Shown: positions 825 through 13,354 of the stretch, in pieces
Numbering within the stretch: position 1 is the first letter of the stretch
Layout of the letters: the number at the start of each line of letters is the position of its first letter
Origin: a virus
IMG/VR virus record: IMGVR_UViG_3300012348_000044
Span: 1-36,666 of that record
Length of the DNA: 36,666 bases
Direction: 5' to 3' (one strand)
Translations under genes and position numbers: made by a program
Notes under the pieces: generated by a model
What the model was told of the DNA's origin: nothing
Seen by the model: the letters and a program-made list of their open reading frames with translations, nothing else
Databases searched by the model: none

Positions 825-1341
825 TTGCGAGAGCCTCCACCAAAATGGACTCTTGCTCACTTGTCAGGGCAAATGTTTCGCGCAGTTTGTCGGTTGAGTA
901 TTGCCCAGACTTGATGCGCTCAATGGCTTGCGCAAATCGCGCATTTGTCAGCGTCTCCTTTTTGCGTGGCTTGCTGGCCGCATTGCCATCATCGTCTTCT
1001 GGCGCGATACCGCAGGCAGACATGAGCGAATAGCGGCGGGCATACGTCAATGCCGAGCCATAGCCTTGCGGGTCTTGCTTGGCTGCTGGAACGTGCAAAC
1101 GGCCCGCGCTGAATGTCTCGCCAGACTCATGAATGAACAGCGTTTCAACAGTTACGCCGTGCTCGCACTCATGGGTTGGCTGCATGAGCATCACGCCGTT
1201 TTCGTTGAGCGCATCAACGACAGCTTCAACGCAGGCGGCCAGGTCTGCATAGCGCGATTTGAAGTGAGGGTTGGTTGACGACTTGAGCGCAGGGCCAAAA
1301 GCCTTCTGAGCCTTGACCAAAGCTGATGCAATTTTCTGCAT
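817..1341 (-). CDS. erf: ERF-family single-strand annealing protein (recombinase)
   Basis: Motifs NPHFKSRYADL and GSALTYARRYSL are typical of the ERF family. It is the first gene of the leftward operon and is followed by an exonuclease. Confidence 0.8.
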   Translation of the reverse strand: MQKIASALVKAQKAFGPALKSSTNPHFKSRYADLAACVEAVVDALNENGVMLMQPTHECEHGVTVETLFIHESGETFSAGRLHVPAAKQDPQGYGSALTYARRYSLMSACGIAPEDDDGNAASKPRKKETLTNARFAQAIERIKSGQYSTDKLRETFALTSEQESILVEALANA

Positions 1342-1477
1342 GATCTACTTTCGGTTTGCATGGCGACTGTGCCACGGGTTTTATTGTAATCTGATTTCAA
1401 GCAATCCGCGCAAAATAATTTGCACGCCGCGCAAAAAAATCACGCTACAATGGCGCATCAAATCAACTGGGGAACAA
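1342..1477. promoter_or_regulatory. Divergent early control region (candidate leftward and rightward promoters plus operators)
   Basis: A 136-nt gap separates the divergently transcribed erf and HTH genes. Direct repeats CCGCGCAAAATAAT (1406-1419) and CCGCGCAAAAAAAT (1427-1440) are phased 21 bp apart. TACAAT occurs on the + strand at 1446-1451 and on the - strand at 1383-1388. No canonical -35 box at 17 bp could be found. Confidence 0.4.
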
Positions 1478-1825
1478 ATGACAGAGCAAGAAGTCACAAA
1501 CGAGTCAGTCAAAGCACTGCGCAAATCACTTGGCATGGGCCAGGCTGAATTTTGGGGGCCGATTGGTGTGAAGCAAGCCGCAGCCAGTGGCTACGAGAAT
1601 GAAACGGCCATCCCAAAGCCCGTGCGCATCCTGGTGGTGGCTCGCTACGTTTGCGGCATCCACATCGACGCAGACACGGCAGATGGCGTTGAAGCAACAA
1701 AGCAGCTTGGAAACGTCCAGCAAAAGAAGATCAAGGCCAAAGCCATTGCAGGCGAGGTCAAGCAAGACCTGGCAAAAGCCGCCAAATCAATTCAAACTGC
1801 GCACGACGCGCTGAGTTCATACTGA
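1478..1825 (+). CDS. Cro/XRE-like helix-turn-helix regulator
   Basis: LRKSLGMGQAEFWGPIGVKQAAASGYENE resembles an XRE-type HTH. It is the first rightward gene. ATG 1478 was chosen because the longer ORF-track version (from 1313) would cross the divergent promoter region and overlap the erf start. Confidence 0.65.
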   Translation: MTEQEVTNESVKALRKSLGMGQAEFWGPIGVKQAAASGYENETAIPKPVRILVVARYVCGIHIDADTADGVEATKQLGNVQQKKIKAKAIAGEVKQDLAKAAKSIQTAHDALSSY

Positions 1826-1835
1826 AAGGAAGATC

Positions 1836-2258
1836 ATGGCTCAAATCACTGGAGTTTTTCGCATTGGCCGGGACGCTGAAGTCCGTCACACACCGCGCGG
1901 CGATGCTGTGGCGCAATTGTCGCTGGCCTACAACTACGGCAAAAAAGGCGACGATGGCAAGCGCCCATCGCAATGGATTGACGCAGCCATCTGGGGCAAG
2001 CGTGCCGAATCGCTCGCACCTTACCTGCTTAAAGGCTCGCAGATTTACGCCGTCCTGAGTGACCCGCATATCCAGACCTATGAAGGCAAAAACGGCCAAG
2101 GCCACAAGCTGGCCGCGACCGTGCTGGAGATTGAATTGATCGCGGGCCAACGCGACCAAGCACAACCGGCACAACGCCAAGAGCGCCCAGCGGCACGACC
2201 AGCGCCAGCGCAAGAAGCCAGTGGATTTGATGACATGGACAGCGACGTGCCATTCTGA
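1836..2258 (+). CDS. ssb: Single-stranded DNA-binding protein
   Basis: OB-fold N-terminus (MAQITGVFRIGRDAEVRHTPRGDAVAQLSLA), a Pro/Gln/Ala-rich linker and an acidic tail DDMDSDVPF. AAGGAAG RBS upstream. Confidence 0.9.
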   Translation: MAQITGVFRIGRDAEVRHTPRGDAVAQLSLAYNYGKKGDDGKRPSQWIDAAIWGKRAESLAPYLLKGSQIYAVLSDPHIQTYEGKNGQGHKLAATVLEIELIAGQRDQAQPAQRQERPAARPAPAQEASGFDDMDSDVPF

Positions 2259-2372
2259 CGCTTACGGGCTGAAAGCGGATGCTGTGAGCGTGGCGTATTG
2301 CAATGCACGGGCACCGTGCCACCAACAGACGCAGCAAGTAGGCCCACCATTTTTTTAACCAAGGAGAAAAGC

Positions 2373-2714
2373 ATGAACCAAGAGCAAATCGCCCGTGTCT
2401 GCCACGAAGTTAACCGCGCTTATTGCGAATCGCTTGGAGACAACAGCCAGCCATCATGGGAAGGCGCTCCTCAGTGGCAAAAAGACAGCGCCATGCTTGG
2501 CGTGAAATTGCACACTGAGAATGATGTTGGCCCAGAGGCAAGTCATCAAAGCTGGATGGCGCAAAAAGTTGCTGAAGGTTGGATTTATGGCCCAACAAAA
2601 GACCCAGAGGCAAAGACACACCATTGCATCGTGCCATTTGATATGCTGCCACGCGAGCAACAGGCCAAGGATTTCATTTTCCGAGCCGTTGTCCATGCTT
2701 TGCGCTCTGCTTGA
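2373..2714 (+). CDS. RyR-domain (ryanodine-receptor repeat-like) protein
   Basis: SWMAQKVAEGWIYGPTKDPEAKTHHCIVPFDMLPREQQAKD matches the W..EK..GW.YG...D...K.HP.LVPY..L pattern of the RyR domain. AAGGAG lies upstream of ATG 2373. Confidence 0.65.
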   Translation: MNQEQIARVCHEVNRAYCESLGDNSQPSWEGAPQWQKDSAMLGVKLHTENDVGPEASHQSWMAQKVAEGWIYGPTKDPEAKTHHCIVPFDMLPREQQAKDFIFRAVVHALRSA

Positions 2715-3238
2715 TGGCTAAATTTACCATCCAGCGCACCGGTCAAGCCATCCCCGCAGAACTGGAGGGCGCACGCGCCCTTCTTTTCAAATGCTTTGAA
2801 GGCCGCACCGACGAAGACACATCCGCATGGAAAAAGCTGTGGTCACGGCTTATCAAGTCCGAGCCCGGCCAGATCGTCAACATGGAGGCATCGTTTCCGC
2901 GAAACGTTCGTTTTCATCGAAAGTTCTTTGCTCTGCTTAACCTCGGCTTTGAGGCATGGACACCGGCCACCAAATTCAAAGGCATGGACATTGCCAAAGA
3001 CTTTGATCAGTTTAGATCAGATGTGACCATCCTTGCGGGTTTCTACGACCAAGCCTTCACCCTTGATGGCACGATGACGCTGAAAGCCAAATCGATCAGC
3101 TTTGGCCGAATGGAAGAACCCGAGTTTGAGAAACTCTATTCCGCCGTGGTGAACGTCCTGCTTGCGCGAGTGCTGACCACGTACGAAAACCGCGAGCAAT
3201 TGGATGCCGTGGTTGACCAGATACTTGGCATGGCATGA
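2714..3238 (+). CDS. Hypothetical nin-region-like protein (DUF1367-like)
   Basis: RNVRFHRKFFALLNLGF resembles DUF1367 as I remember it. TGATG junction with the upstream gene. The family assignment is from memory only. Confidence 0.45.
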   Translation: MAKFTIQRTGQAIPAELEGARALLFKCFEGRTDEDTSAWKKLWSRLIKSEPGQIVNMEASFPRNVRFHRKFFALLNLGFEAWTPATKFKGMDIAKDFDQFRSDVTILAGFYDQAFTLDGTMTLKAKSISFGRMEEPEFEKLYSAVVNVLLARVLTTYENREQLDAVVDQILGMA

Positions 3239-3558
3239 GATTCCCAAAACACAACTACATCCGAAGCAAAACGCTGCTGCGCAACGCCCGCGAGATATCC
3301 TGCCAGCATTGCGGCGCTGACGATGGGACTGTGGTGGCCGCGCACACCAACCACGGCGGCGGCAAGGGTCGCGGCATCAAGGCATCAGACAACCTGATCG
3401 CATCGCTTTGCTTTCGATGCCATCATGCGCTTGACCAAGGCGCATCAATGACCAAAGACGAGCGCCAGACAATGTGGCAGGCGGCGCACGCCAAGACAGT
3501 GGAAAAGCTGACAAAGCTGGGATTGTGGCCCGATGATGTGCCACTGCCTGAAAATTAG
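3235..3558 (+). CDS. YbcO/DUF1364-like putative Zn-dependent nuclease
   Basis: CQHCG...TVVAAHTN..GGKGRGIKASD..IASLC..CHH..D resembles the Cys/His pattern of lambdoid YbcO. ATGA overlap with the upstream gene. Confidence 0.5.
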   Translation: MRFPKHNYIRSKTLLRNAREISCQHCGADDGTVVAAHTNHGGGKGRGIKASDNLIASLCFRCHHALDQGASMTKDERQTMWQAAHAKTVEKLTKLGLWPDDVPLPEN

Positions 3559-3593
3559 GATACAATAAAATTCCCTAAAACAATTCAGCGAAA

Positions 3594-4106
3594 GTGAAGA
3601 TGAGAGTTCAAAAAGTACACACGATAGAAAGCCTCATGGCGCGGACTATTGAGATCGGCGACTGCATGGAGTGGACTGGATACTGCCAAAACGAAACACC
3701 ATTCGTGGTGTCTGGTGGAGTCAAGTGGATGGTGCGCAGATTGGTTAAGCATTTGCAAGGCAGGCCGCTTTACCCTGGCGTCCACTTTGGCACGCATTGT
3801 GGAAATCCAAAGTGCGTAAATCCTGACCACATCGCAGAGCGCAGAAAAGCCGATCACATGAGGCTCATGGCAAAAAACGTCGATCACAATCACCCGATTC
3901 GCATTGCCAAGCTGCAAAAAGCAGCAGAGTCTCGCCGAGTGCTGTCTGATGAGAGCTTGGCAATGATTCGCAGCGATGACCGCAATGACCGCATTGTTGC
4001 CGCTGATTTTGGTGTCAGCAAAAGCCTCATCAATAAAATTAGGCAGAACAAATCACGAAAGATTGTCAACGCCTCAGTCAATCCATTTGCAGGTCTGATG
4101 CGATGA
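3594..4106 (+). CDS. HNH_3-like zinc-loop domain plus C-terminal HTH protein (homing-endonuclease-like or regulator)
   Basis: CMEWTGYC...CGNPKCVNPDHI motif, and C-terminal ADFGVSKSLINKIRQNK (HTH-like). GTG at 3594; an alternative ATG lies at 3600. Confidence 0.5.
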   Translation: MKMRVQKVHTIESLMARTIEIGDCMEWTGYCQNETPFVVSGGVKWMVRRLVKHLQGRPLYPGVHFGTHCGNPKCVNPDHIAERRKADHMRLMAKNVDHNHPIRIAKLQKAAESRRVLSDESLAMIRSDDRNDRIVAADFGVSKSLINKIRQNKSRKIVNASVNPFAGLMR

Positions 4107-4567
4107 GAAAGCGCAGTTCATACCGACCAAAAGGAATCCGGCCAGACGCTGTGTCTTATGTCCTTTCAAGCATCAAGCCGCTGTCCAAAGTTGATGACGC
4201 ATTGACCACGCTCAAGATCAAAAACCATGGCGCGATGGCCGCAGTCACGCAAGGCTACGCTTGCCGCGATGATATGGACTTGCTGATAGCGGCCATGAAC
4301 ATTGCAGAAGCGTTTTGCATCAAAGGCATCGGCTCTGACTACTACCCACAAATCCGGGCAGGCCAAGACGCATTGCAGGCACTTTGCAAGCGCGGCGTCG
4401 ATCGAGGTGATCGCTTTATTTTCAAATCCGAAGAAATGCAGGCATTGAACCTGGCGATGGAAGTTCACGATGCACAGCTTGAAGTTGCGACAGTTAAGCA
4501 GCTTGAGCAAGCCGTGGAGTTTGTCCGCGAAACCATCCGACTTGGCAAAGCCAGGAAAATCATATGA
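4103..4567 (+). CDS. Hypothetical protein
   Basis: 154-aa ORF with ATGA overlaps at both ends. No motif recognised. Confidence 0.55.
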   Translation: MRKRSSYRPKGIRPDAVSYVLSSIKPLSKVDDALTTLKIKNHGAMAAVTQGYACRDDMDLLIAAMNIAEAFCIKGIGSDYYPQIRAGQDALQALCKRGVDRGDRFIFKSEEMQALNLAMEVHDAQLEVATVKQLEQAVEFVRETIRLGKARKII

Positions 4568-4671
4568 CTTGGCCATTCCCGCCACCTACCGGCCCAACCC
4601 CGTGGACTGCCAAGCAAAAGGCAGAATACGAACGCGCCAAGCGAAACCAACAAGGCGAGGCTCCTTGGTGA
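4564..4671 (+). CDS. Hypothetical small protein (35 aa, Pro-rich)
   Basis: MTWPFPPPTGPTPWTAKQKAEYERAKRNQQGEAPW. ATGA overlap upstream and GTGA overlap downstream. It is too short for the ORF track and is supported only by its coupling geometry. Confidence 0.3.
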   Translation: MTWPFPPPTGPTPWTAKQKAEYERAKRNQQGEAPW

Positions 4672-4871
4672 AGCCGATATGCGCTCTTTGTGGCCGACCA
4701 ACCAGGCCATTTGTCATGATTGGCCGCGAGGCTATTGGCCCGAAGTGCGCAGCCAAATCTGGCCTGATGCCAAAGTCCTGGCGCAATAGTCGGCTGAAAT
4801 TTATCAAGCCGATCAAAGCTGAAAGCAATGGCCAAGGCGATTTATTCGCCGACCAAAAGGAAATCACATGA
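4668..4871 (+). CDS. Hypothetical small Cys-containing protein
   Basis: GTG start in a GTGA overlap. (M)KPICALCGRPTRPFVMIGREAIGPKCAAK. Ends in an ATGA overlap with the MTase-like gene. Confidence 0.35.
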   Translation: MKPICALCGRPTRPFVMIGREAIGPKCAAKSGLMPKSWRNSRLKFIKPIKAESNGQGDLFADQKEIT

Positions 4872-5443
4872 AAAAATTTAAAGTATTGATTGGTTGTGAA
4901 TATTCAGGCGCAGTGCGCGATGAATTCATCAAGCGAGGCCATGATGCAATGAGTTGCGATTTGTTGGATACAGACGCGCCGGGGCCTCATTACAAAGGCA
5001 GTGTTTTTGATGTCATTGACTATCCTTGGGATATTGCGATCTTTCACCCGCCATGCACACATCTGTCGGTGTCAGGCGCTCGTCACTTTGCGGCAAAGTG
5101 GACGGATGGAAGGCAAGCCGAAGCCGTGGCGTTTTTTATGAAATTGCAGCGGGCATCAGCACACATCCCAAAAACGGCCACCGAAAACCCAGTTTGCATT
5201 ATGTCAAGCCTTTGGCGCAAGCCAGACCAAGTAATCCAGCCGTGGCAATATGGGCACGGAGAAACCAAGGCAACTTGTCTGTGGTTAAAAGGCTTGCCAT
5301 TGCTGACACCGACCAACATCGTTGAAGGCCGAGAGCAGCGCATCCATTTGATGCCACCAAGCGAAGACCGCTGGAAGTTGCGCAGCACGACTTATGCTGG
5401 GATTGCAGCCGCAATGGCCGAGCAGTGGGGTAATCATGATTGA
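4868..5443 (+). CDS. Miniature DNA cytosine-C5 methyltransferase-like protein
   Basis: FHPPCTHLSVSG resembles motif IV (PC.. catalytic Cys). TENP resembles motif VI (ENV). N-terminal VLIGCEYSGAVRDEF sits at the motif I position. At only 191 aa it has no room for a TRD or motifs IX-X. Confidence 0.6.
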   Translation: MKKFKVLIGCEYSGAVRDEFIKRGHDAMSCDLLDTDAPGPHYKGSVFDVIDYPWDIAIFHPPCTHLSVSGARHFAAKWTDGRQAEAVAFFMKLQRASAHIPKTATENPVCIMSSLWRKPDQVIQPWQYGHGETKATCLWLKGLPLLTPTNIVEGREQRIHLMPPSEDRWKLRSTTYAGIAAAMAEQWGNHD

Positions 5444-5792
5444 ACTAACACTGCCTTGGCCATCGCCAGACCTAAGCCCAAACGTGCGCGGCCACTGGGC
5501 CATAAAAGCCCGAGCAGCCAAAGCCTACCGCCAGGCATGCTACATCACCGCAAAGCAGCAAGGCCTGACTCGCATTGACGCGCCACGCCTGCACGCCACG
5601 ATCACTTTCTACCCGCCATCAAAGCGCAGGATTGACCTTGACAACTGCATCGCCAGGATCAAGCAAGCCATCGACGCTGTGGCCGAGATCAGCGGCGTTG
5701 ACGACAGCAAGTGGACGATGAGTTTTTCCTTCGCTGGTGAGGTCGGCGGGATGGTGAAAATAAATCTTGAACCGATGTTTTTGGTCGGTTAA
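5436..5792 (+). CDS. rusA: RusA-family Holliday junction resolvase
   Basis: LPWPSPDLSPNVRGHWA...KAYR and IDLDNCIARIKQAIDAV...DD are typical RusA motifs. ATG 5436 overlaps the upstream gene by 8 nt. Confidence 0.8.
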   Translation: MIELTLPWPSPDLSPNVRGHWAIKARAAKAYRQACYITAKQQGLTRIDAPRLHATITFYPPSKRRIDLDNCIARIKQAIDAVAEISGVDDSKWTMSFSFAGEVGGMVKINLEPMFLVG

Positions 5793-5806
5793 GATATCAA
5801 CTTGAT

Positions 5807-5848
5807 GGCTTAGATGTTGCACGGACTAGGTGCAGATACATCTAAGCC
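5807..5848 (+). promoter_or_regulatory. Long stem-loop (16 bp stem with a 3-nt bulge, loop GGACTAG)
   Basis: GGCTTAGATGT (5807-5817) pairs with ACATCTAAGCC (5838-5848). TGCAC (5818-5822) pairs with GTGCA (5830-5834). No U-run follows. Confidence 0.6.
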
Positions 5849-5860
5849 TTCATTGGCTGA

Positions 5861-5911
5861 CCCATGAATGTCCGATGCTAGTCCCATCGGCTTTCATGGG
5901 TTTTCTTTTTT
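5861..5911 (+). terminator. Rho-independent terminator closing the early/nin block
   Basis: CCCATGAA (5861-5868) pairs with TTCATGGG (5893-5900). An inner stem pairs CCGATG with CATCGG, with loop CTAGTCC. The hairpin is followed by TTTTCTTTTTT (5901-5911). Confidence 0.75.
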
Positions 5912-5923
5912 GGAGAGTCAGAA

Positions 5924-8119
5924 GTGGAATATGAAGATTTTGTGGCGGCCAAGCGCCGAAAAGAAGTGGCGACAGGCCATCAACCTGGCGACCTGAACGA
6001 GCATTTGTTCGACTTTCAGCACGCCATTGTTAGCTGGGCCGTTCGTCGTGGCCGCGCAGCCATTTTTGCCGATACAGGACTTGGCAAGACGCTGATGCAG
6101 CTTTCATGGGCCGATGAGGTGGCAAGCCACACTGGCGGGTCTGTGCTGGTGCTGGCCCCGCTTGCCGTGTCTGAGCAGACAATTGAGCAAGGATCCACGT
6201 TTGGCATTGAGGTCAAGCGCGTGCCTCATTCTGGCGTGATTGATTCGCCCGGCGTCTGGATCACAAACTACGAGCGCATGGATGCCATCGACTTTACCGA
6301 GTTGCATGGCCTGGTGCTGGATGAATCATCCATCCTGAAGGCTCACGATGGCAAAACGCGCCAGCACATCATCACATCGGCTCAAGGCGTGCCTTATCGC
6401 TTGAGTTGCACGGCCACGCCATCACCCAATGATTTTGAGGAGCTTGGCAACCAGTGCGAGTTTTTGGGCGTCATGACTCGCACCGAGATGCTGGCGACTT
6501 ATTTTGTCAACGACACCGGAGACACTGGAACATGGCGACTCAAGGGATGGGGTGCGTCAAAGTTCTGGGAATGGATGGGATCATGGGCCGTGGTGCTGCG
6601 CAATCCATCTGATTTGGGATTTGATGGCGCAAGGTATGAGTTGCCGCCACTTGAGTATTTTGAGCACGTTATTCAGACTGAGGCCATTGAAGGCGATTTG
6701 TTCTCGCGCCCAGCCATGACCATGACCGAGCGAAGAAAGGCCCAGCGAGATAGCATTGAGGCGCGATGCCGCGCATTGGCGGATGTTGTCAATGCCGATA
6801 AATCAGAGCCTTGGATTATTTGGTGTCACTTGAATGATGAAGCTGAATTGCTCAAGCAGCTGATAGACGATTCTGTGAATGTTCAGGGGTCTGACTCGCC
6901 AGAATCAAAAGCAAAAAACTTGCTCTCATTTGCGCATGGTGACATTCGAGTCATGATTAGCAAGGCAAAAATAGCAGGGTATGGCCTCAATTGGCAGCAC
7001 TGCGCGCGCATGGCATTTGTCGGCCTAGACGACTCATTTGAAAAGTTCTACCAGGCCGTTCGCCGGTGCTACCGATTCGGACAAAAGCGCAATGTGCAGG
7101 TGCATATGTTCACCGCAGAAAACGAAGGCCAGATTCTGGCAAACCTTAAACGCAAAGAAGTGCAACATCACGAGATGAGCGCAAACATGATCGAACACAT
7201 GAAAGACATTATGAACAAAGAACTCGCAGGCCAAGAAAACATCGTGGACGAATACCGCGAAGACACATTCAACGGCGATGGCTTTACCGTCCACTTGGGT
7301 GACTGCGTGAAGTGGTCACGCCGCATGGCCGACAACAGCGTGGACTATTCTGTTTTCTCGCCGCCATTCGCCGATCTGTTTGTTTACTCAAACAGCGATC
7401 ACGACATGGGCAACTGCAAGAACGATCAAGAATTTGTCGAGCAGTTGAAGTTCCTGATCTCTGAGCTTTTCCGAGTTTTGAAGCCTGGCCGCAATGTCTC
7501 ATTCCACTGCATGAACTTGCCGACAACAAAGATGCGCCAAGGCTTTATCGGCCTGCGTGATTTCCGTGGAGATTTGATCCGCGCGTTCCAAGATGCTGGA
7601 TTCATCTATCACTCTGAGGTCTGCATCTGGAAAGATCCAGTTGTCGCCATGCAGCGCACAAAGGCACTTGGTCTGCTGCACAAGACAATCCGCGAAAACA
7701 GCACCATGAGCCGCATGGGCCTGCCTGATTACGTCGTGACCATGCGAAAGCCTGGAGAGATTGAGGAGCGCGTCACGCACGGCGATGATTTGCCCGTCCA
7801 TCTGTGGCAAAAGTACGCCAGCCCAATCTGGGATGACATCGACCAAGGCCGCACGCTGAACAAAATGCCAGCGCGTGACGAGAACGACGAGAAGCATATG
7901 TGCCCGCTTCAGCTTGATGTGATTGAGCGCTGCATCCACCTGTGGACAAACAAAGGCGATGTTGTTTTCAGCCCATTCACCGGCATTGGCTCTGAAGGCT
8001 ATACAGCCATCAAGATGGGCCGGAAGTTTGTTGGCACTGAACTCAAGCCGCAATACTTTGAGCTGGCCTGTCTCAACATCACTGACGCATCAAAAGAGCA
8101 GCAAGGATTGTTTGCTTGA
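5924..8119 (+). CDS. SNF2-family ATPase/helicase fused to a beta-class N6A/N4C DNA methyltransferase
   Basis: N-terminal half: ADTGLGKT (motif I), VLDESS (II), CTATPSPN (III), GYGLNWQ (V), QAVRRCYRFGQKRNV (VI). C-terminal half: SPPFADLFVY (motif IV, (D/N/S)PP(Y/F)), then CPLQLDVIERCIHLWTNKGDVVFSPFTGIGSEG (motif I, FxGxG). GTG start with a GGAGAG RBS. Confidence 0.85.
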   Translation: MEYEDFVAAKRRKEVATGHQPGDLNEHLFDFQHAIVSWAVRRGRAAIFADTGLGKTLMQLSWADEVASHTGGSVLVLAPLAVSEQTIEQGSTFGIEVKRVPHSGVIDSPGVWITNYERMDAIDFTELHGLVLDESSILKAHDGKTRQHIITSAQGVPYRLSCTATPSPNDFEELGNQCEFLGVMTRTEMLATYFVNDTGDTGTWRLKGWGASKFWEWMGSWAVVLRNPSDLGFDGARYELPPLEYFEHVIQTEAIEGDLFSRPAMTMTERRKAQRDSIEARCRALADVVNADKSEPWIIWCHLNDEAELLKQLIDDSVNVQGSDSPESKAKNLLSFAHGDIRVMISKAKIAGYGLNWQHCARMAFVGLDDSFEKFYQAVRRCYRFGQKRNVQVHMFTAENEGQILANLKRKEVQHHEMSANMIEHMKDIMNKELAGQENIVDEYREDTFNGDGFTVHLGDCVKWSRRMADNSVDYSVFSPPFADLFVYSNSDHDMGNCKNDQEFVEQLKFLISELFRVLKPGRNVSFHCMNLPTTKMRQGFIGLRDFRGDLIRAFQDAGFIYHSEVCIWKDPVVAMQRTKALGLLHKTIRENSTMSRMGLPDYVVTMRKPGEIEERVTHGDDLPVHLWQKYASPIWDDIDQGRTLNKMPARDENDEKHMCPLQLDVIERCIHLWTNKGDVVFSPFTGIGSEGYTAIKMGRKFVGTELKPQYFELACLNITDASKEQQGLFA

Positions 8120-8226
8120 TGTAAAATAATGCGAAACGAGGCTAGGTCGGGACTGATCCCCTGACCGAAAAGCGAACTCCCCGCCTGCCTTTGTTTCTTT
8201 TCTGGGAGATTTGCGGAGATGCCATC

Positions 8227-8898
8227 GTGCATTATTACAAGAGAAATCTTGGCGATTACGCCAAAAAATGTGGCCGCCTATCAATGCTTCAGCACGGAGC
8301 GTACACGCTTCTGATTGATTCGTGCTATGACCGTGAAAAATTCCCAACGCTTGATGAAGCCATTGAATGGACATGGGCCAGCACTGAAGCTGAGATTGAG
8401 GCTGTAAAGTTTGTCCTTGGCCGCTTTTTTACGCTGTCTCCAGACGGTGAGTATGTGCAAGATCGCATCCTTGCAGAGCTTCTTGAGTACCACTCAAAAG
8501 CCGACACAAACAAACGAATCGCACAAGAACGCGAGGCGAAGCGTAAAGAAAAAAGCACGAGTCGTTCACATACCGTAAACGAAGCGCCACCTAACCAAGA
8601 ACCAAGAACCATAAACCAAGAACCAGTTATTTGTGCCCCGCCTGTCGGCAAGGCCAAAGGAAAAAGGCTTTCGCCTGATTGGCAACTGCCAAAAGCATGG
8701 GGAGAGTGGACGCTGGAGACAATGGGCTGGGAGACGGCAACGGTCAGACTTGAGGCTGATAAGTTTCGAGACTACTGGGTGGCGACAAGTGGGCGAAACG
8801 CCGCCAAGCTGGATTGGGAAGCCACTTGGCGCAACTGGTGTCGAAATGCCAAGGTTCAGGCAACGCCTCAGCCATCCTTGCTGGCAGGTGGAATATGA
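8227..8898 (+). CDS. DUF1376 (YdaU-like) protein with a DnaT-like C-terminal domain; replication initiation / primosome protein
   Basis: HYYKRNLGDYAKKCGRLSMLQHGAYTLLID is the DUF1376 signature. The C-terminus has W..P..W..W....F.DYW......DWEATWRNWCRNA (DnaT-like). GTG 8227 is preceded by GGAG; the ORF-track start at 8191 is an alternative. Confidence 0.7.
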   Translation: MHYYKRNLGDYAKKCGRLSMLQHGAYTLLIDSCYDREKFPTLDEAIEWTWASTEAEIEAVKFVLGRFFTLSPDGEYVQDRILAELLEYHSKADTNKRIAQEREAKRKEKSTSRSHTVNEAPPNQEPRTINQEPVICAPPVGKAKGKRLSPDWQLPKAWGEWTLETMGWETATVRLEADKFRDYWVATSGRNAAKLDWEATWRNWCRNAKVQATPQPSLLAGGI

Positions 8899-9272
8899 AG
8901 GGACACATTGACCTCATCAAAATGAGGATGGCAAGCAAGAAGCCAGCAAGTGTGGCAATCTACGATTACCCGTTTGACACCGACTGGACAAAATACGGCG
9001 ACTTGCCAAGGGTATGCGTTCACGGTGAGGCGGTAGTTGACCTTGATTTGCGCTTTGTGATCGGCATGGTTGTTTTCATTGAAAGCAACAGCGAAGCGAG
9101 AGCCGATCAGTTGCTAGAAAAATGTATCGCCATGGGCGCGTCTATCGTGGCCGCGAGCAGCTACCCAGCGCCAAAGCAAGATCCGTATTCAAGAGCCGCA
9201 TCAAAAAGCCATTTGTTTTTTAAAGATTTTGGAGGTCAGATTGACAACAATCATCACGTCAGATTCGATTGA
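8895..9272 (+). CDS. Hypothetical protein in the replication module
   Basis: ATGA overlap with the upstream gene. 125 aa. No motif recognised. Confidence 0.5.
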   Translation: MKGHIDLIKMRMASKKPASVAIYDYPFDTDWTKYGDLPRVCVHGEAVVDLDLRFVIGMVVFIESNSEARADQLLEKCIAMGASIVAASSYPAPKQDPYSRAASKSHLFFKDFGGQIDNNHHVRFD

Positions 9273-10221
9273 TTTCAGGCAGTACCTGAAAGAGTCGGAT
9301 GCAAAGGCGAACGTGAAGAACGCCGCCGACTACACGCAAACGCTCAAAGACAGACTGCGCATCAAGCAAAACGAGAAGAAGGTTTTTTTGCCATGGCCGA
9401 AGACTCGAGACAATTTTGATTTCCGTCCAGGTGAGGTCACTGTTTGGGCTGGTCAGAACGGCCACGGCAAGAGCCTTGTCACCAGCATGGTGGCGCTTTC
9501 ACTGATCGGCCAAGAGCAAAAATTGTGCATTGCCAGTTTTGAGATGAAGCCGCACATGACAATTCAGCGCATGGCGCGAATGTATGCGGGCATGAATCCA
9601 TTTTCTCCAGAGTTCCAAGGCAGGGATGGTATCCAAGCAATTGACGAGCTATACGACGAATTCGGCGGGTGGGTTGACAAGCGCCTATGGATTTATGACC
9701 AGCAAGGCACAGCAGACCGTGAGCTTGTCACTGGCATGGTCAGGTATTGCGCCGTTGAGCTTGGCTTGAATCATGTATTCGTGGACAACTTGGCGAAGGT
9801 GGTAAGTGGTGAGGATGACTACAACGGGCAAAAAGCGTTTGTCGATGAAATGACCAGCATCGCCCGAGATCATCAAATCCACGTTCACATCGTCCACCAC
9901 CTGAAAAAACCAAGCAAAGAGACAGAGCTTCCCGACAAAAATGACCTCAAGGGGTCTGGTGCTATCGCCGACCAGGTTGACAACATTATCTTGGTTTTCC
10001 GCAACAAAGCCAAAGAGATCGCCATCCGGTCTGGCAAGAGTGGCGAAAAAGGCGCAGAACCCGATCAAGTTTTGTTTGTTCGCAAGCAGCGCAACTACGA
10101 AGGCTCAAGCGATGGTGAGCCGCAGATCAATTTGTGGTTTGACATGGACAGCCAGCAATACCGCGAATCGAGTGATGCGTATCCATTGTTTTTTCCCAAT
10201 TACCCTCACTACAAAACATGA
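9241..10221 (+). CDS. DnaB-like / T7 gp4-like replicative helicase (RecA-fold C-terminal domain)
   Basis: Walker A GQNGHGKS, Walker B-like HVFVDNL, HIVHHLKKPS, LKGSGAIADQVDNIILV. TTG 9241 has GGAGG 5 nt upstream; the ORF-track start is TTG 9229. Confidence 0.8.
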   Translation: MTTIITSDSIDFRQYLKESDAKANVKNAADYTQTLKDRLRIKQNEKKVFLPWPKTRDNFDFRPGEVTVWAGQNGHGKSLVTSMVALSLIGQEQKLCIASFEMKPHMTIQRMARMYAGMNPFSPEFQGRDGIQAIDELYDEFGGWVDKRLWIYDQQGTADRELVTGMVRYCAVELGLNHVFVDNLAKVVSGEDDYNGQKAFVDEMTSIARDHQIHVHIVHHLKKPSKETELPDKNDLKGSGAIADQVDNIILVFRNKAKEIAIRSGKSGEKGAEPDQVLFVRKQRNYEGSSDGEPQINLWFDMDSQQYRESSDAYPLFFPNYPHYKT

Positions 10222-10232
10222 AGGAGACATTG

Positions 10233-10550
10233 ATGAAAGCTGAAGCCAAACGCGACAAAGGAATCGCCAAAGCGGTCAATCACGCCGAGCGCATACATGG
10301 CGACTGGTTTGACAAGGCAAGCCTCATGATGCTTTTGTTCATGAAGCAAAACCCAGGCAAGATGTTCATGGCCGAGCAGGTAAGGCAATGGGCCGAACAA
10401 TGCGGGATGCCAAAGCCGCCAGATGGCCGCGCATGGGGTGGAGTGTTCATCGCCGCAGCCAAGGCTAACGTAATCCGCAGCGTTGGCTACAAGCGGCAGG
10501 AATCGCCGTCCTGCCATTGCTCGCCAAAGAACGTGTGGAGGAAAGCCTGA
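10233..10550 (+). CDS. Hypothetical protein
   Basis: AAGGAG lies 6 nt upstream of ATG 10233. Contains DGRAWGGVFIAAAKANVI. Function unknown. Confidence 0.55.
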   Translation: MKAEAKRDKGIAKAVNHAERIHGDWFDKASLMMLLFMKQNPGKMFMAEQVRQWAEQCGMPKPPDGRAWGGVFIAAAKANVIRSVGYKRQESPSCHCSPKNVWRKA

Positions 10551-10741
10551 TGGACTACCAACTGGCCTACAAGATGCAACTTGAAAAGTTGATGAAGCTG
10601 GCCGAAAAGCCGGAGTGGAAGGCTTACGCATGGCAGTACGCGCAAGACTTGGCCGCCGACAAGTCTGGCGTTTTCGCTGGAATTGATGTTGAGCTTGCCT
10701 CCAAGATGAACGAAAAAAAAATTATTTCAAAAAAAGATTGA
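10550..10741 (+). CDS. Hypothetical protein
   Basis: TGATG junction and a GGAGGA RBS. 63 aa, predicted helical. Confidence 0.5.
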   Translation: MDYQLAYKMQLEKLMKLAEKPEWKAYAWQYAQDLAADKSGVFAGIDVELASKMNEKKIISKKD

Positions 10742-10812
10742 ACCAATCAAATTATTGGTTTATGATTTCAGTCAGGCCGCAACATCTTGCAGCCACCAAC
10801 CGAAAGACAGAC

Positions 10813-10947
10813 ATGAAACATCAATGGCACTACGAGCGCCAAGAGCGCAACATGAACAAACGCGCAGAAGCTGCGATGGGCGTTTTGCTGGCCGTGGCCA
10901 TCGGCCTTGGCTTGGCGACTTTGCTTTTTGTTCACCTTTCCAAGTGA
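10813..10947 (+). CDS. Hypothetical small membrane protein
   Basis: MKHQWHYERQERNMNKRAEAAMGVLLAVAIGLGLATLLFVHLSK has one clear TM helix. The RBS is weak, and an alternative ATG lies at 10852. Confidence 0.35.
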   Translation: MKHQWHYERQERNMNKRAEAAMGVLLAVAIGLGLATLLFVHLSK

Positions 10948-10955
10948 GGCTAGCC

Positions 10956-11228
10956 ATGTTCACACCAGGAAAGTGGGAGGAGCGCAAATGCGCATACGGA
11001 TGGACAGACATCTACCCAAGCAAGTGCCTTACTGAGTTGCCAGTGGCATCCGTGCGAGGTCATCACCCATCAACAAACGAAGCCGATGCCCGCCTGATCG
11101 CCGCATCAAAAGACCTGCATCAAGCCGTGATCGACTTGCTGCCATTCGCTGAATCCGTGCTTGGCCTTAAAAATCCACGCATCGCAGAAATCCGCTCAAC
11201 ACTTGACGAAATCCGAGGCCAGAAATGA
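10956..11228 (+). CDS. Hypothetical protein (NEADARLIAASKDL-type phage family)
   Basis: The ADARLIAA..DL motif is common in small phage proteins of unknown function. The N-terminal part of the longer ORF-track version is Arg-rich nonsense. Confidence 0.55.
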   Translation: MFTPGKWEERKCAYGWTDIYPSKCLTELPVASVRGHHPSTNEADARLIAASKDLHQAVIDLLPFAESVLGLKNPRIAEIRSTLDEIRGQK

Positions 11229-11380
11229 ATCAACCAATCATGATTCCAATCGTTCCAAACGACCACTTTGAACCAGAGGCGTTTGATTTCAACATTCCAT
11301 GCTGCTGGTGCAAGCATCGCAGCGGTGCAGACGACGAAGGCCAGTGCCGTGATTGCGGACACAACGGGAGAAACCAATGA
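11225..11380 (+). CDS. Hypothetical zinc-ribbon-like micro-protein (51 aa)
   Basis: MNQPIMIPIVPNDHFEPEAFDFNIPCCWCKHRSGADDEGQCRDCGHNGRNQ contains CxxC...CxxC. ATGA overlaps at both ends. Absent from the ORF track because it is under 60 aa. Confidence 0.45.
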   Translation: MNQPIMIPIVPNDHFEPEAFDFNIPCCWCKHRSGADDEGQCRDCGHNGRNQ

Positions 11381-11715
11381 GCAGCATCAAACACATGGCA
11401 GTGCTGAACGCTCTGCACCTGAACGGCCCGCAAGACTACCTGGCACTTGAGCGCATTTTGGGAATGTCTGGCCTGACGTATGTTGTCGGCGTATTGCGCA
11501 ATCAAGGCTTGATTGATGCGCTGCAAAAAAAGTCAAAAGAACTGCGCAAATACAAGATCACAGACAAAGGCATGAGCCACATTGGCAAAAACGTCATCAA
11601 GACTGGATTTGTCTATGAGCCGCTTGTATTGGTTGACATGACACCAACGCACCCAGGCTCAATGGATGCCTTCAAGCTGAAAAGCCTATCCGGTCAACGG
11701 CCATCGCACGTATGA
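11377..11715 (+). CDS. Winged-helix DNA-binding protein (MarR-like fold)
   Basis: VLNALHLNGPQDYLALERILGMSGLTYVVGVLRNQGLIDA...KYKITDKG follows the wHTH pattern. Confidence 0.5.
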   Translation: MSSIKHMAVLNALHLNGPQDYLALERILGMSGLTYVVGVLRNQGLIDALQKKSKELRKYKITDKGMSHIGKNVIKTGFVYEPLVLVDMTPTHPGSMDAFKLKSLSGQRPSHV

Positions 11716-12038
11716 AAGCGCATCAAAACCGAGCAAGTGACCAGATGAAGAAAATCACTGAATTGCTTTGCGAAGAAGCAATGACGGCGATGGAGTTGTC
11801 AAAAAAAATTGACATCTCACCAACGCTTGTCAGTCACTACATCCGAAAGCTGACAGACATGGGGCACGTCAAATTATCGGGTGTGAAAATTGTTGGCAGT
11901 TGCAACGCTCAAGCCAAGGTCTGGGTTTGCGAAAAAATGTTTGCACCAGAGCCAAAAGCCGAAAATAAAAAACGAATCAACATCAACACGCTGACTCGCT
12001 GGGTCGGCGGGAATCCTTTTGAAAGACTTACGACATGA
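11712..12038 (+). CDS. Winged-helix DNA-binding protein
   Basis: ITELLCEEAMTAMELSKKIDISPTLVSHYIRKLTDMGHVKL follows the wHTH pattern. ATGA overlap with the preceding wHTH gene. Confidence 0.5.
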   Translation: MKAHQNRASDQMKKITELLCEEAMTAMELSKKIDISPTLVSHYIRKLTDMGHVKLSGVKIVGSCNAQAKVWVCEKMFAPEPKAENKKRININTLTRWVGGNPFERLTT

Positions 12039-12190
12039 CGCAAGCGCAAAAAGTATTTGAGGCCATTCAGAAAAGCAAGGGCCAGACCAACTTCGAGAAA
12101 ACATCGAGTGGAAAGTACGTCAACCAAGCCATCCAAACGCGCTGGAACTATTTTCAGTTGGGATGGGAAATGCGAGGGGCAACAGCATGA
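12035..12190 (+). CDS. Hypothetical micro-protein (51 aa)
   Basis: MTQAQKVFEAIQKSKGQTNFEKTSSGKYVNQAIQTRWNYFQLGWEMRGATA. ATGA overlaps at both ends. Not in the ORF track. Confidence 0.4.
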   Translation: MTQAQKVFEAIQKSKGQTNFEKTSSGKYVNQAIQTRWNYFQLGWEMRGATA

Positions 12191-12882
12191 GCAAAGTTGA
12201 GAAAGCAGCAAAGCGGGCGCTGAAGGTGTTGGAGTATTGGGATGTGCATGGAACGCTGCATCAACCGACAGAAGAAGCCATCATCGCCCTGCGAGAAGCA
12301 CTGGCAGAGCAGCCAGCACAGCAGGAGACTGCGACGTGTGAAGAAGAGCACCCAAACAGCCGTTATTTGTTTAAGCGACTTTGCGGAGTTGCGGGAATCG
12401 AGCTGGGCAAAGACACCGTCCCGCAGGCTTTGGACAAAATTGCAAAACTGCGAGAAGCACTTGCAGAGCAGCCAGCGCAGCATGAATTTGGTTGCCGTGC
12501 GAATGCTTTTGGGAATTGCACATGTGGCAAGGAGCAGCCAGCACAACAGGAGCCTGTGGCGCTCGACGTTACCCTTGAGGGCGACGAAGCTCGCGCTCTA
12601 TACGATTTATTCGGCGACGACCGCGAAGATTTGTCACCCGTTCGATTGCTTGTAGGTGATGGGCACAGCGGGTACGGTCTGTATGTGGCACTTGCTGAAT
12701 ACCAAGACGAGGGCGCGGAGTTAATTGCGTCAATCATCCCGCCAGCACAGCGCACATGGGTTGGGCTGACGCTTGAAGAGATAGACACCGAGTGGGGGCT
12801 GTTCATGTCTGGGCAAGGCTCGGGGTACATCCCAGACTTTGTTCGCGCCATCGAAGCCAAACTCAAAGAGCGCAACCAATGA
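12187..12882 (+). CDS. Hypothetical protein with internal LREALAEQPAQ repeats
   Basis: 231 aa. The repeated helical segment is followed by Gln/Pro linkers. The C-terminal FVRAIEAKLKERN-type ending is common in small lambdoid early proteins. Confidence 0.6.
   Translation: MSKVEKAAKRALKVLEYWDVHGTLHQPTEEAIIALREALAEQPAQQETATCEEEHPNSRYLFKRLCGVAGIELGKDTVPQALDKIAKLREALAEQPAQHEFGCRANAFGNCTCGKEQPAQQEPVALDVTLEGDEARALYDLFGDDREDLSPVRLLVGDGHSGYGLYVALAEYQDEGAELIASIIPPAQRTWVGLTLEEIDTEWGLFMSGQGSGYIPDFVRAIEAKLKERNQ
12289..12482 (+). repeat. 35-nt direct repeat inside the 12187-12882 gene (copies at 12289-12323 and 12448-12482, 33/35 identical); a partial third copy lies at 12532-12551
   Basis: ctgcgagaagcactggcagagcagccagcacagca versus ctgcgagaagcacttgcagagcagccagcgcagca. 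The spacing is 159 nt, which keeps the copies in frame. Confidence 0.8.
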
Positions 12883-13013
12883 ACTGGCTCGACAAACTCT
12901 TTGACTGGTTCACCCCAGCCAAACAAACAACCGACCCCAACTGCCCTCACTGCCGAGGCTTTGGATATGACGTATCAGGGTACGCGTGTACCTGCGTGAA
13001 GGAGAAGAAATGA
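12879..13013 (+). CDS. Hypothetical small Cys-rich protein (44 aa)
   Basis: MNWLDKLFDWFTPAKQTTDPNCPHCRGFGYDVSGYACTCVKEKK. ATGA overlaps at both ends. Confidence 0.4.
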   Translation: MNWLDKLFDWFTPAKQTTDPNCPHCRGFGYDVSGYACTCVKEKK

Positions 13014-13354
13014 AGACAAGCAAAATCCTCACACTGGCCAAGAAAGAGTTGGCCAAAACCGCAGCCGAAAGCGACTTTTATACGGGCACCAAAGAGAAGT
13101 ACGTCTGCCTAGCCATCCGACGTGCTGGTGATAAATGCGAATCCGCTAAAGACGCGGACGCGGCGAGGCGTGTCGTATGGATGGTTGAAAGCCGCCTGTC
13201 TCCGTACGCCACACTGGAGTCATGGCTGACGGCGAAGGGGTGCCTGACTTATGACCATGTAGGCCTGGACGAAGCCATGTATGCCCGTATCCAGCAACAC
13301 CGCCACGCATGGTTGGACGAAATGATTGCCGAGTTTAAGCGCAAAGGAGATTGA
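13010..13354 (+). CDS. Hypothetical protein
   Basis: AAGGAGAAG RBS and an ATGA overlap. 114 aa. Confidence 0.55.
   Translation: MKTSKILTLAKKELAKTAAESDFYTGTKEKYVCLAIRRAGDKCESAKDADAARRVVWMVESRLSPYATLESWLTAKGCLTYDHVGLDEAMYARIQQHRHAWLDEMIAEFKRKGD

Follow-up and report, generated by a model that had tools for sequence, protein, structure and literature searches.

A 191-residue phage protein of the phrog_757 family as a probable compact DNA cytosine-C5 methyltransferase without a target-recognition domain

The best studied relative of the gene described here comes from coliphage K42, a phage with 95% identity to KarlJaspers/Bas06. All K42 mutants escaping the retron Ec86 (Eco1) were found to disrupt a 711-bp gene for a 'Dcm-like C5 cytosine methyltransferase'; this gene, expressed alone from a plasmid, was toxic only in the presence of retron Ec86, and its product raised the level of 5-methylcytosine (5mC) in the multicopy single-stranded DNA (msDNA), as measured by liquid chromatography-mass spectrometry (bioRxiv 10.1101/2023.08.16.553469; published as Cell Rep 2024, 43:114857). 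The C82A/E128A/K175A/K176A mutant of K42 Dcm showed neither the toxicity with the retron nor the rise in 5mC (bioRxiv 10.1101/2023.08.16.553469). Two further enzymes serve for comparison, namely M.EcoGII, a non-specific adenine methyltransferase (PMC5778455), and CmoX of Synechococcus phage S-B43, a DNA cytosine C5-carboxymethyltransferase which uses carboxy-S-adenosylmethionine (carboxy-SAM) and carries a Pro-Pro-Cys motif (PMC12783734). The gene under study is located at positions 4868..5443 on the plus strand of virus record IMGVR_UViG_3300012348_000044, a complete record of 36,666 bp with direct terminal repeats which is called the window below, and it encodes a protein of 191 amino acids (aa). 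In our study, this gene is found to belong to a known and annotated kind, the large phrog_757 family, in which the 191-aa copy belongs to a subfamily that is divergent and shorter relative to the K42 type. The protein is probably a stand-alone, single-domain DNA cytosine-C5 methyltransferase (C5-MTase) which lacks the target-recognition domain (TRD) and would serve anti-restriction. This reading is based on the family membership, fold, conservation and catalytic-residue alignment computed here. An ordinary compact methyltransferase, which the initial annotation had listed as an outcome contrary to its own proposals, has now become the most likely one.

Searches of Pfam, NCBIfam and PDB sequences with the single 191-aa protein gave nothing useful. 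The match with phrog_757 ('DNA methyltransferase') has an E-value of 3.4e-69 and places residues 1-190 on positions 12-221 of the 247 profile positions. With this match and thousands of homologues, the ORF is far from being a chance reading frame. The same profile is matched by Bcep1 gp12, SH6 gp82, an RB49-like protein and Bas06_0055, the last of which is the 236-aa product of the 711-bp gene as located in KarlJaspers (MZ501090, 40087-40797; phrog_757 E 5e-89). T1-like SH6 gp82 also reached an hhalign probability of 99.3% against A1, the family profile of the 191-aa protein. On alignment, the K42-type residues C82, E128 and K175 correspond to C63, E106 and K134 of the 191-aa protein, and K176 corresponds to Ala135. 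The traits of phrog_757 found in the 191-aa protein are the full-length profile match, the aligned Cys/Glu/Lys residues and the single-domain stand-alone form of approximately 180-250 aa.

The predicted structure supports the same assignment. An AlphaFold2 model, built from an alignment of 67 sequences, has a predicted local distance difference test (pLDDT) value of 96.4 and a predicted template modelling (pTM) score of 0.91, and its top Foldseek matches in the PDB were DNMT1, DNMT3A/B and M.HaeIII (E 3e-6 to 1e-4, probability 1.00). Over the best canonical matches (DNMT3A/B, M.HhaI and M.HaeIII), VIA-align superposed 181-184 residues at 3.0-3.2 A with Z 13-14.5. The comparison with DNMT3B gave Z 14.5 and a root mean square deviation of 3.0 A over 182 residues; with M.HhaI, Z was 13.9 and 183 residues were aligned, model residues 1-191 spanning HhaI 7-322, and in DNMT3A the model spans residues 631-909. 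Judged from the model, the 191-aa protein corresponds to the large catalytic domain; it extends from motif I up to the helix of motif X and lacks the small domain which carries the TRD and motif IX. Further, a profile containing both subfamilies was compared by hhalign with 25 canonical PF00145 enzymes and gave a probability of 93% (E 3e-7) over residues 2-109, which cover motifs I-VI. Before both subfamilies were included in the query, the probability against the 25-sequence canonical alignment was 87%, and against E. coli Dcm alone it was 0.5%, which is too weak, with motifs III-VI correctly placed. The sequence link to the canonical PF00145 enzymes is real, if weak. As the hhalign alignment ends after motif VI, the assignments of motifs VIII and X are those of the fold comparison only.

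These results bear on several statements of the initial annotation, which had described a C5-MTase-like core without its target-recognition half. Fold comparison and remote homology agree on such a core, and the catalytic-domain fold is retained. The statement that no room is left for motifs IX-X held in part. The TRD/motif IX small domain is indeed missing, but helix 177-188, with G-I-A-A-A-M-A, stands at the motif X position, where it is aligned to HhaI 322 and DNMT3A 909. The open reading frame (ORF) does end shortly after the ENV-like motif, with 83 residues following ENP instead of the approximately 90 given earlier. Motif I had been called degenerate, and the alignment and hhalign place C-E-Y-S-G at the FxGxG position.

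All motifs of the protein lie on the plus strand of the window, and their conservation was read from the 67-sequence alignment A1 unless stated otherwise. The motif I position, C10-E11-Y12-S13-G14 (4895..4909), is matched in the alignments to F-D-G-S-G of the K42 type and to FxGxG of the canonical enzymes. Apart from the variable third residue, its positions are conserved in 90% or more of the sequences; among 150 representatives the pattern was C-E-x-S-G wherever it could be located. Motif I of the 191-aa protein is a conserved variant rather than a product of decay. D31 (4958..4960) is an acidic residue which does not vary in A1; it closes strand 2 (residues 26-31 in the model) and is a candidate for the ribose-binding residue of motif II. 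Motif IV, H60-P61-P62-C63-T64 (5045..5059), contains the predicted catalytic Cys63 and aligns with C82 of the K42/Bas06 Dcm and with PCQ of the canonical enzymes. Motif VI, E106-N107-P108 (5183..5191), is the equivalent of ENV, with which it aligns, as it does with E128 of K42 Dcm; ENP was present in 106 of the 112 representatives where motif VI was located. The motif VIII position is taken by K134-A-T-C-L-W139 (5267..5284), in which K134 and W139 are invariant and K134 aligns with K175 of K42 Dcm. In place of the TRD and the motif IX small domain, the model has a connector of approximately 35 residues (142-176; 5291..5395), conserved as LPxLxPT...DRxKxRS, and it is followed by the C-terminal helix of residues 177-188, AGIAAAMAEQWG (5396..5431), which the model and the structural alignment ranges place at the motif X position. 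Overall, D31, H41, P61, P125, K134 and W139 are invariant, and C10, E11, S13, G14, C63, T64, E106, N107 and P108 are conserved in at least 90% of the sequences.

A number of observations weigh against an active methyltransferase of the usual kind. PF00145 gave no match to the 191-aa protein even at E 1, and no more than 4 of the 67 family members matched it with E of about 1e-3; the family profile, when compared with the PDB, found no solved C5-MTase by sequence. Where the canonical enzymes have QxRxR in motif VIII and GN in motif X, the 191-aa protein has E-T-K-A-T and G-I-A, respectively. The identity to the K42 type is only about 31%, with a direct BLASTP E-value of 3e-11 over 80 residues, and the K42-type protein has two insertions of approximately 19 residues each (after motif III and before K-x-TCLW) which are missing in the 191-aa protein. 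Motif I reads C-E-Y-S-G instead of the canonical F-D-G-S-G of the K42 type, and for this reason the binding of S-adenosylmethionine (AdoMet) is inferred. Moreover, the K42 evidence comes from a quadruple mutant, in vivo and on msDNA, and does not address genome-wide specificity. Activity has been reported for the K42 type only, and no tested member of the C-E-x-S-G subfamily was found in the literature.

Some of these features would also suit a non-catalytic protein which keeps the fold and flips cytosine or binds DNA without any transfer, as a decoy or anti-restriction factor; the point in its favour is that the canonical consensus is degenerate in motifs I, VIII and X. However, Cys63, Glu106-Asn107 and Lys134 are at least 90% conserved across thousands of sequences, and the K42 Dcm quadruple mutant lost both 5mC formation and growth inhibition in cells with retron Ec86. 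The inteins of the family also speak against such a protein. Intein domains (Hint and LAGLIDADG homing endonuclease) were present in 9 of the 51 long homologues, and in all four which were aligned (P0281, P0284, P0297 and P0318) the intein lies exactly between P62 and C63 (window 5051/5054), so that the inteins target the catalytic cysteine. Inteins are typically inserted at functionally essential sites, and the placement before Cys63 fits an essential active site. The decoy proposed initially is thus very improbable, given that 5mC formation in vivo is documented for a relative in the family and disappears when the aligned Cys/Glu/Lys residues are mutated. In the intein-bearing compact methyltransferases the catalytic cysteine is the +1 extein residue. 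Inteins also occur in some canonical PF00145 enzymes (P0347, P0364, P0369 and P0436).

The gene family is large and its length is maintained. A word-indexed search retrieved at least 8000 homologues, the best 120 of which are 185-216 aa long and 75-97% identical, and an exhaustive HMMER search gave 4735 clusters at 50% identity with E up to 1e-3. The small size of the protein, about 60% of that of the shortest canonical enzymes, could suggest that a full-length C5-MTase gene has decayed or been truncated. On the other hand, the length of 185-216 aa is kept among close homologues, the model is confident, compact and complete, the frame is intact with a good ribosome-binding site, and purifying selection obviously acts on the family in different domains of life. 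The chance of such a remnant is close to nil, and the decayed gene considered in the initial annotation is refuted by the at least 8000 homologues of similar length with near-invariant C63, E106, N107 and K134.

Members of the C-E-x-S-G subfamily with 50-76% identity were found in isolates of Stenotrophomonas, Acetobacter, Acinetobacter, Sphingomonas, Enterococcus and Neobacillus, and in metagenome-assembled genomes (MAGs; assignments as labelled) of many phyla, including Candidate Phyla Radiation (CPR) lineages and archaeal MAGs with a chromosome-level Nitrosopumilus assembly. Example loci from the set L090-L169 are L113 (Nitrosopumilus MAG chromosome), L132 (Enterococcus viikkiensis) and L143 (Neobacillus). 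Judged by these identities, the conservation across hosts is unusually high for a phage accessory gene. The 191-aa subfamily is thus spread across many bacterial phyla and archaeal MAGs, whereas the K42 type occurs mainly in enterobacterial phages. Among named phages the best match was gp12 of Burkholderia phage Bcep1 (68% identity), and weaker matches were obtained in Acinetobacter, Flavobacterium and Vibrio phages and in two Microviridae records.

Since the TRD is missing, the protein could be a catalytic subunit which needs a partner for DNA recognition. This partner might come from the host or from an unlinked phage gene, or the protein might associate with itself through a homo-oligomer interface, as in DNMT3A/3L. 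The nearest structural matches, DNMT3A/B, act as oligomers according to their structure titles, and rare natural fusions of the family to Dam, N6_N4 methyltransferases, a PD-(D/E)xK nuclease, a helicase or a canonical C5-MTase point in the same direction. A partner encoded nearby was looked for by tblastn of the neighbours of the methyltransferase gene in 160 related loci and by de novo ORF clustering in 80 viral loci. The upstream ORFs of 154, 35 and 67 aa recurred in none of the 160 related loci, RusA recurred in 1 and the SNF2 domain in 7; no neighbour family was present in more than 8 of the 80 viral loci, where the sole widely shared 'families' were shadow frames of the methyltransferase gene itself. 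Because no neighbour gene is conserved across the 160 related loci, a genetically linked partner is unlikely, and the split enzyme suggested by the initial annotation is not favoured. In addition, only 51 longer homologues (the fusions named above or intein-bearing forms) were found against at least 8000 stand-alone ones, K42 Dcm expressed from a plasmid was sufficient alone, and the occurrence of the family, at 50-76% identity, in so many bacterial phyla as well as in archaeal MAGs speaks against a specific partner in the host. The dependence on any partner is hence quite unlikely; homo-oligomerisation in itself is compatible with a stand-alone methyltransferase. One of the long forms, P0300 (533 aa), consists of a compact TRD-less methyltransferase in its N-terminal ~200 aa, 44% identical to the 191-aa protein over 97% of the latter, and a full canonical PF00145 C5-MTase (residues 239-528, E 1.5e-33). 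As both are fused in P0300, the compact and canonical C5-MTases coexist and are not redundant copies of each other.

An active C5-type enzyme with another substrate or cofactor has also to be considered. It might act on single-stranded (ss) or replicating DNA or on RNA/tRNA (as Dnmt2 does), or use an AdoMet analogue to give another C5 adduct (as CmoX does with carboxy-SAM). The replacement of FxGxG by C-E-x-S-G in motif I and of G-N by G-I-A in motif X agrees with this, phage C5-MTase homologues which use carboxy-SAM and have a P-P-C motif do exist (PMC12783734), the K42 relative acted on the msDNA stem-loop of the retron, and tblastn matches of 37-46% identity were found in ssDNA Microviridae records. 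In case of carboxy-SAM, however, CmoA (TIGR00740) is absent from the complete 36.7-kb phage genome, and the defining feature of CmoX, a much longer protein, is an Arg at its position 350. No TET-type or other hypermodification family was found among the 20 scanned ORFs of the early region 1313-13354. The K42-type relative shares G-(F/I)-A at motif X, yet it gave 5mC, and the best structural matches of the 191-aa protein are DNA enzymes. Taken together, a different substrate or cofactor is unlikely. Two candidates of this sort were rejected: CmoX-like chemistry, in view of the missing TIGR00740 match in the complete phage and the length of only 191 aa, and the phage TET-associated C5-methyltransferases (PMC8256090), which are Pfam-positive enzymes and for which no link to the phrog_757 family was found. 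The Microviridae matches mentioned above lie in records of 5.6-6.4 kb, MG945386.1 (3790-4263) and MT838132.1 (608-1303), one of them labelled Microviridae and the other 'Bacteriophage sp.'; a DNA methyltransferase in so small an ssDNA-phage genome would be unusual, if the records are sound.

For the stand-alone methyltransferase, the following mechanism can be proposed. The target cytosine would be flipped into the pocket, by analogy with M.HhaI and DNMT3A. Cys63 of PPC would then attack C6, and Glu106 of ENP would protonate N3. At the cytosine or the phosphate, the role of the arginine of motif VIII would fall to Lys134. The methyl group would be moved from AdoMet, which is expected to be held by the C-E-x-S-G loop of motif I, Asp31 and the C-terminal motif X-like helix. 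Because the TRD is reduced to the conserved connector of ~35 residues, recognition of DNA may be short or relaxed. The gene is presumed to be expressed with the early recombination and replication genes (NinB, HNH and RusA), and most likely the phage DNA would be marked during replication, by which host restriction would be blunted alongside the action of the SNF2-N6/N4 methyltransferase. In this scheme we infer the use of AdoMet by the C-E-x-S-G variant, the double-stranded DNA substrate, the relaxed specificity and the protective role.

A more far-reaching form of this proposal is that the C-E-x-S-G subfamily acts as a nearly sequence-independent or dinucleotide-specific cytosine-C5 DNA methyltransferase, that is, as the cytosine counterpart of M.EcoGII. 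This is a tentative and somewhat doubtful suggestion. If low specificity applies, a minimal DNA-reading surface would explain how one protein of 190 residues can work, at 50-76% identity, in archaeal MAGs and in the phages of widely different bacteria. In a less likely variant, the altered pocket of motifs I and X would accommodate another cofactor than AdoMet, and a different adduct would be placed on C5. Over the 36.7-kb genome, most palindromes of 4 bp occur somewhat less often than expected (0.57-0.88 of expectation; CTAG 0.57, GATC 0.61, CGCG 0.72), and GCGC, GGCC and TTAA do not (1.02-1.22); coming from one genome, these values are too weak to point to a target site. The odds ratio of the TA dinucleotide over the whole sequence is 0.39. 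The virion DNA of T5-like phages is reported to be without 5mC (PMC10644984), and T5 has no phrog_757 gene, hence it is uninformative as a natural test.

The genomic setting was examined on the same strand. The ORF at 4868-5443 starts with ATG, preceded at about 6 nucleotides (nt) by the Shine-Dalgarno-like sequence AAGGAA. Its start overlaps the stop of a 67-aa ORF (4668..4871, GTG start) in the ATGA at 4868-4871; the 67-aa ORF is in turn joined by a GTGA overlap to a putative coding micro-ORF of 35 aa (4564..4671), and the latter by an ATGA overlap to a 154-aa ORF (4103-4567), so that the micro-ORF overlaps both neighbours. The 67-aa ORF has a CxxC...GPKC motif, which is zinc-ribbon-like; it gave no PHROG or Pfam match and was not found in the 160 related loci, and the 35-aa micro-ORF likewise had no family match and was absent from the related loci. 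On the downstream side, the ATG at 5436 of a rusA-like Holliday junction resolvase gene (5436..5792; phrog_34, E 8e-22) overlaps the methyltransferase stop by 8 nt (ATGATTGA). A terminator-like hairpin (5883-5900) with a T run (5883..5908), which is a consensus match only, lies 3' of rusA and is the probable end of the methyltransferase-rusA transcription unit. It is followed by a gene in which an SNF2 helicase and an N6/N4 DNA methyltransferase are fused (5924..8119; phrog_16/phrog_67; PF00176, PF00271 and PF01555). The neighbourhood is an early recombination and replication block with NinB, two HNH proteins, RusA, the SNF2-N6/N4 methyltransferase fusion, a primosomal protein and a DnaB-like helicase. 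The ORF, its start and stop overlaps on both sides and its PC-type and ENV-like motifs, as first described, are all present in the sequence, and the SNF2-methyltransferase is borne out by its domain matches as the second modification-type gene of the phage. A stretch of 52 bp (8575-8626) inside the primosomal-protein gene is shared at 96% identity with 13 Acinetobacter baumannii phages. It is the sole near-identical DNA match of region 3000-9000 in the phage collection and may possibly hint at the host or a recombination partner.

This analysis allows the gene to be annotated as a compact (TRD-less) DNA cytosine-C5 methyltransferase instead of 'hypothetical' or 'decayed', and it would provide a second, independent modification enzyme in the early region of the phage. 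By analogy with K42 the gene may also be a liability, as such enzymes can trip methylation-sensing defences, for example retron Ec86. With thousands of members, the family raises the questions of how a TRD-less C5-MTase picks its cytosines and whether the C-E-x-S-G variant uses AdoMet. A cytosine-5 methylase of low specificity, if this holds true, would be a useful footprinting tool.

In comparison to the known systems, the likeness to M.EcoGII would be one of function. M.EcoGII represents an orphan, prophage- or phage-borne type of DNA methyltransferase with little or no sequence recognition, and it differs from the 191-aa protein in fold class, target base and chemistry. CmoX is a full-length enzyme with the carboxylate-binding Arg 350 and a link to CmoA, whereas the 191-aa protein has G-I-A at motif X and its phage has no CmoA. 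The canonical DNA C5-MTases (M.HhaI, M.HaeIII, E. coli Dcm and DNMT3A/B) have the same large-domain fold, and their Pro-Cys nucleophile of motif IV and Glu-Asn of motif VI are kept in the 191-aa protein. On the other hand, they are approximately 295 aa or longer, they match PF00145 and they have the TRD/motif IX small domain which is absent here, and their FxGxG, PCQ, ENV, QxRxR and GN are represented in the 191-aa protein by CExSG, PPCT, ENP, E-x-K-A-T and G-I-A. The K42-type Dcm, like the 191-aa protein, is a single catalytic domain without a TRD, and both have in common PPCT, ENPV, WRKPD, K-x-T-C-L-W and the C-terminal R-S-x-T/S-x-x-G-(I/F)-A helix.

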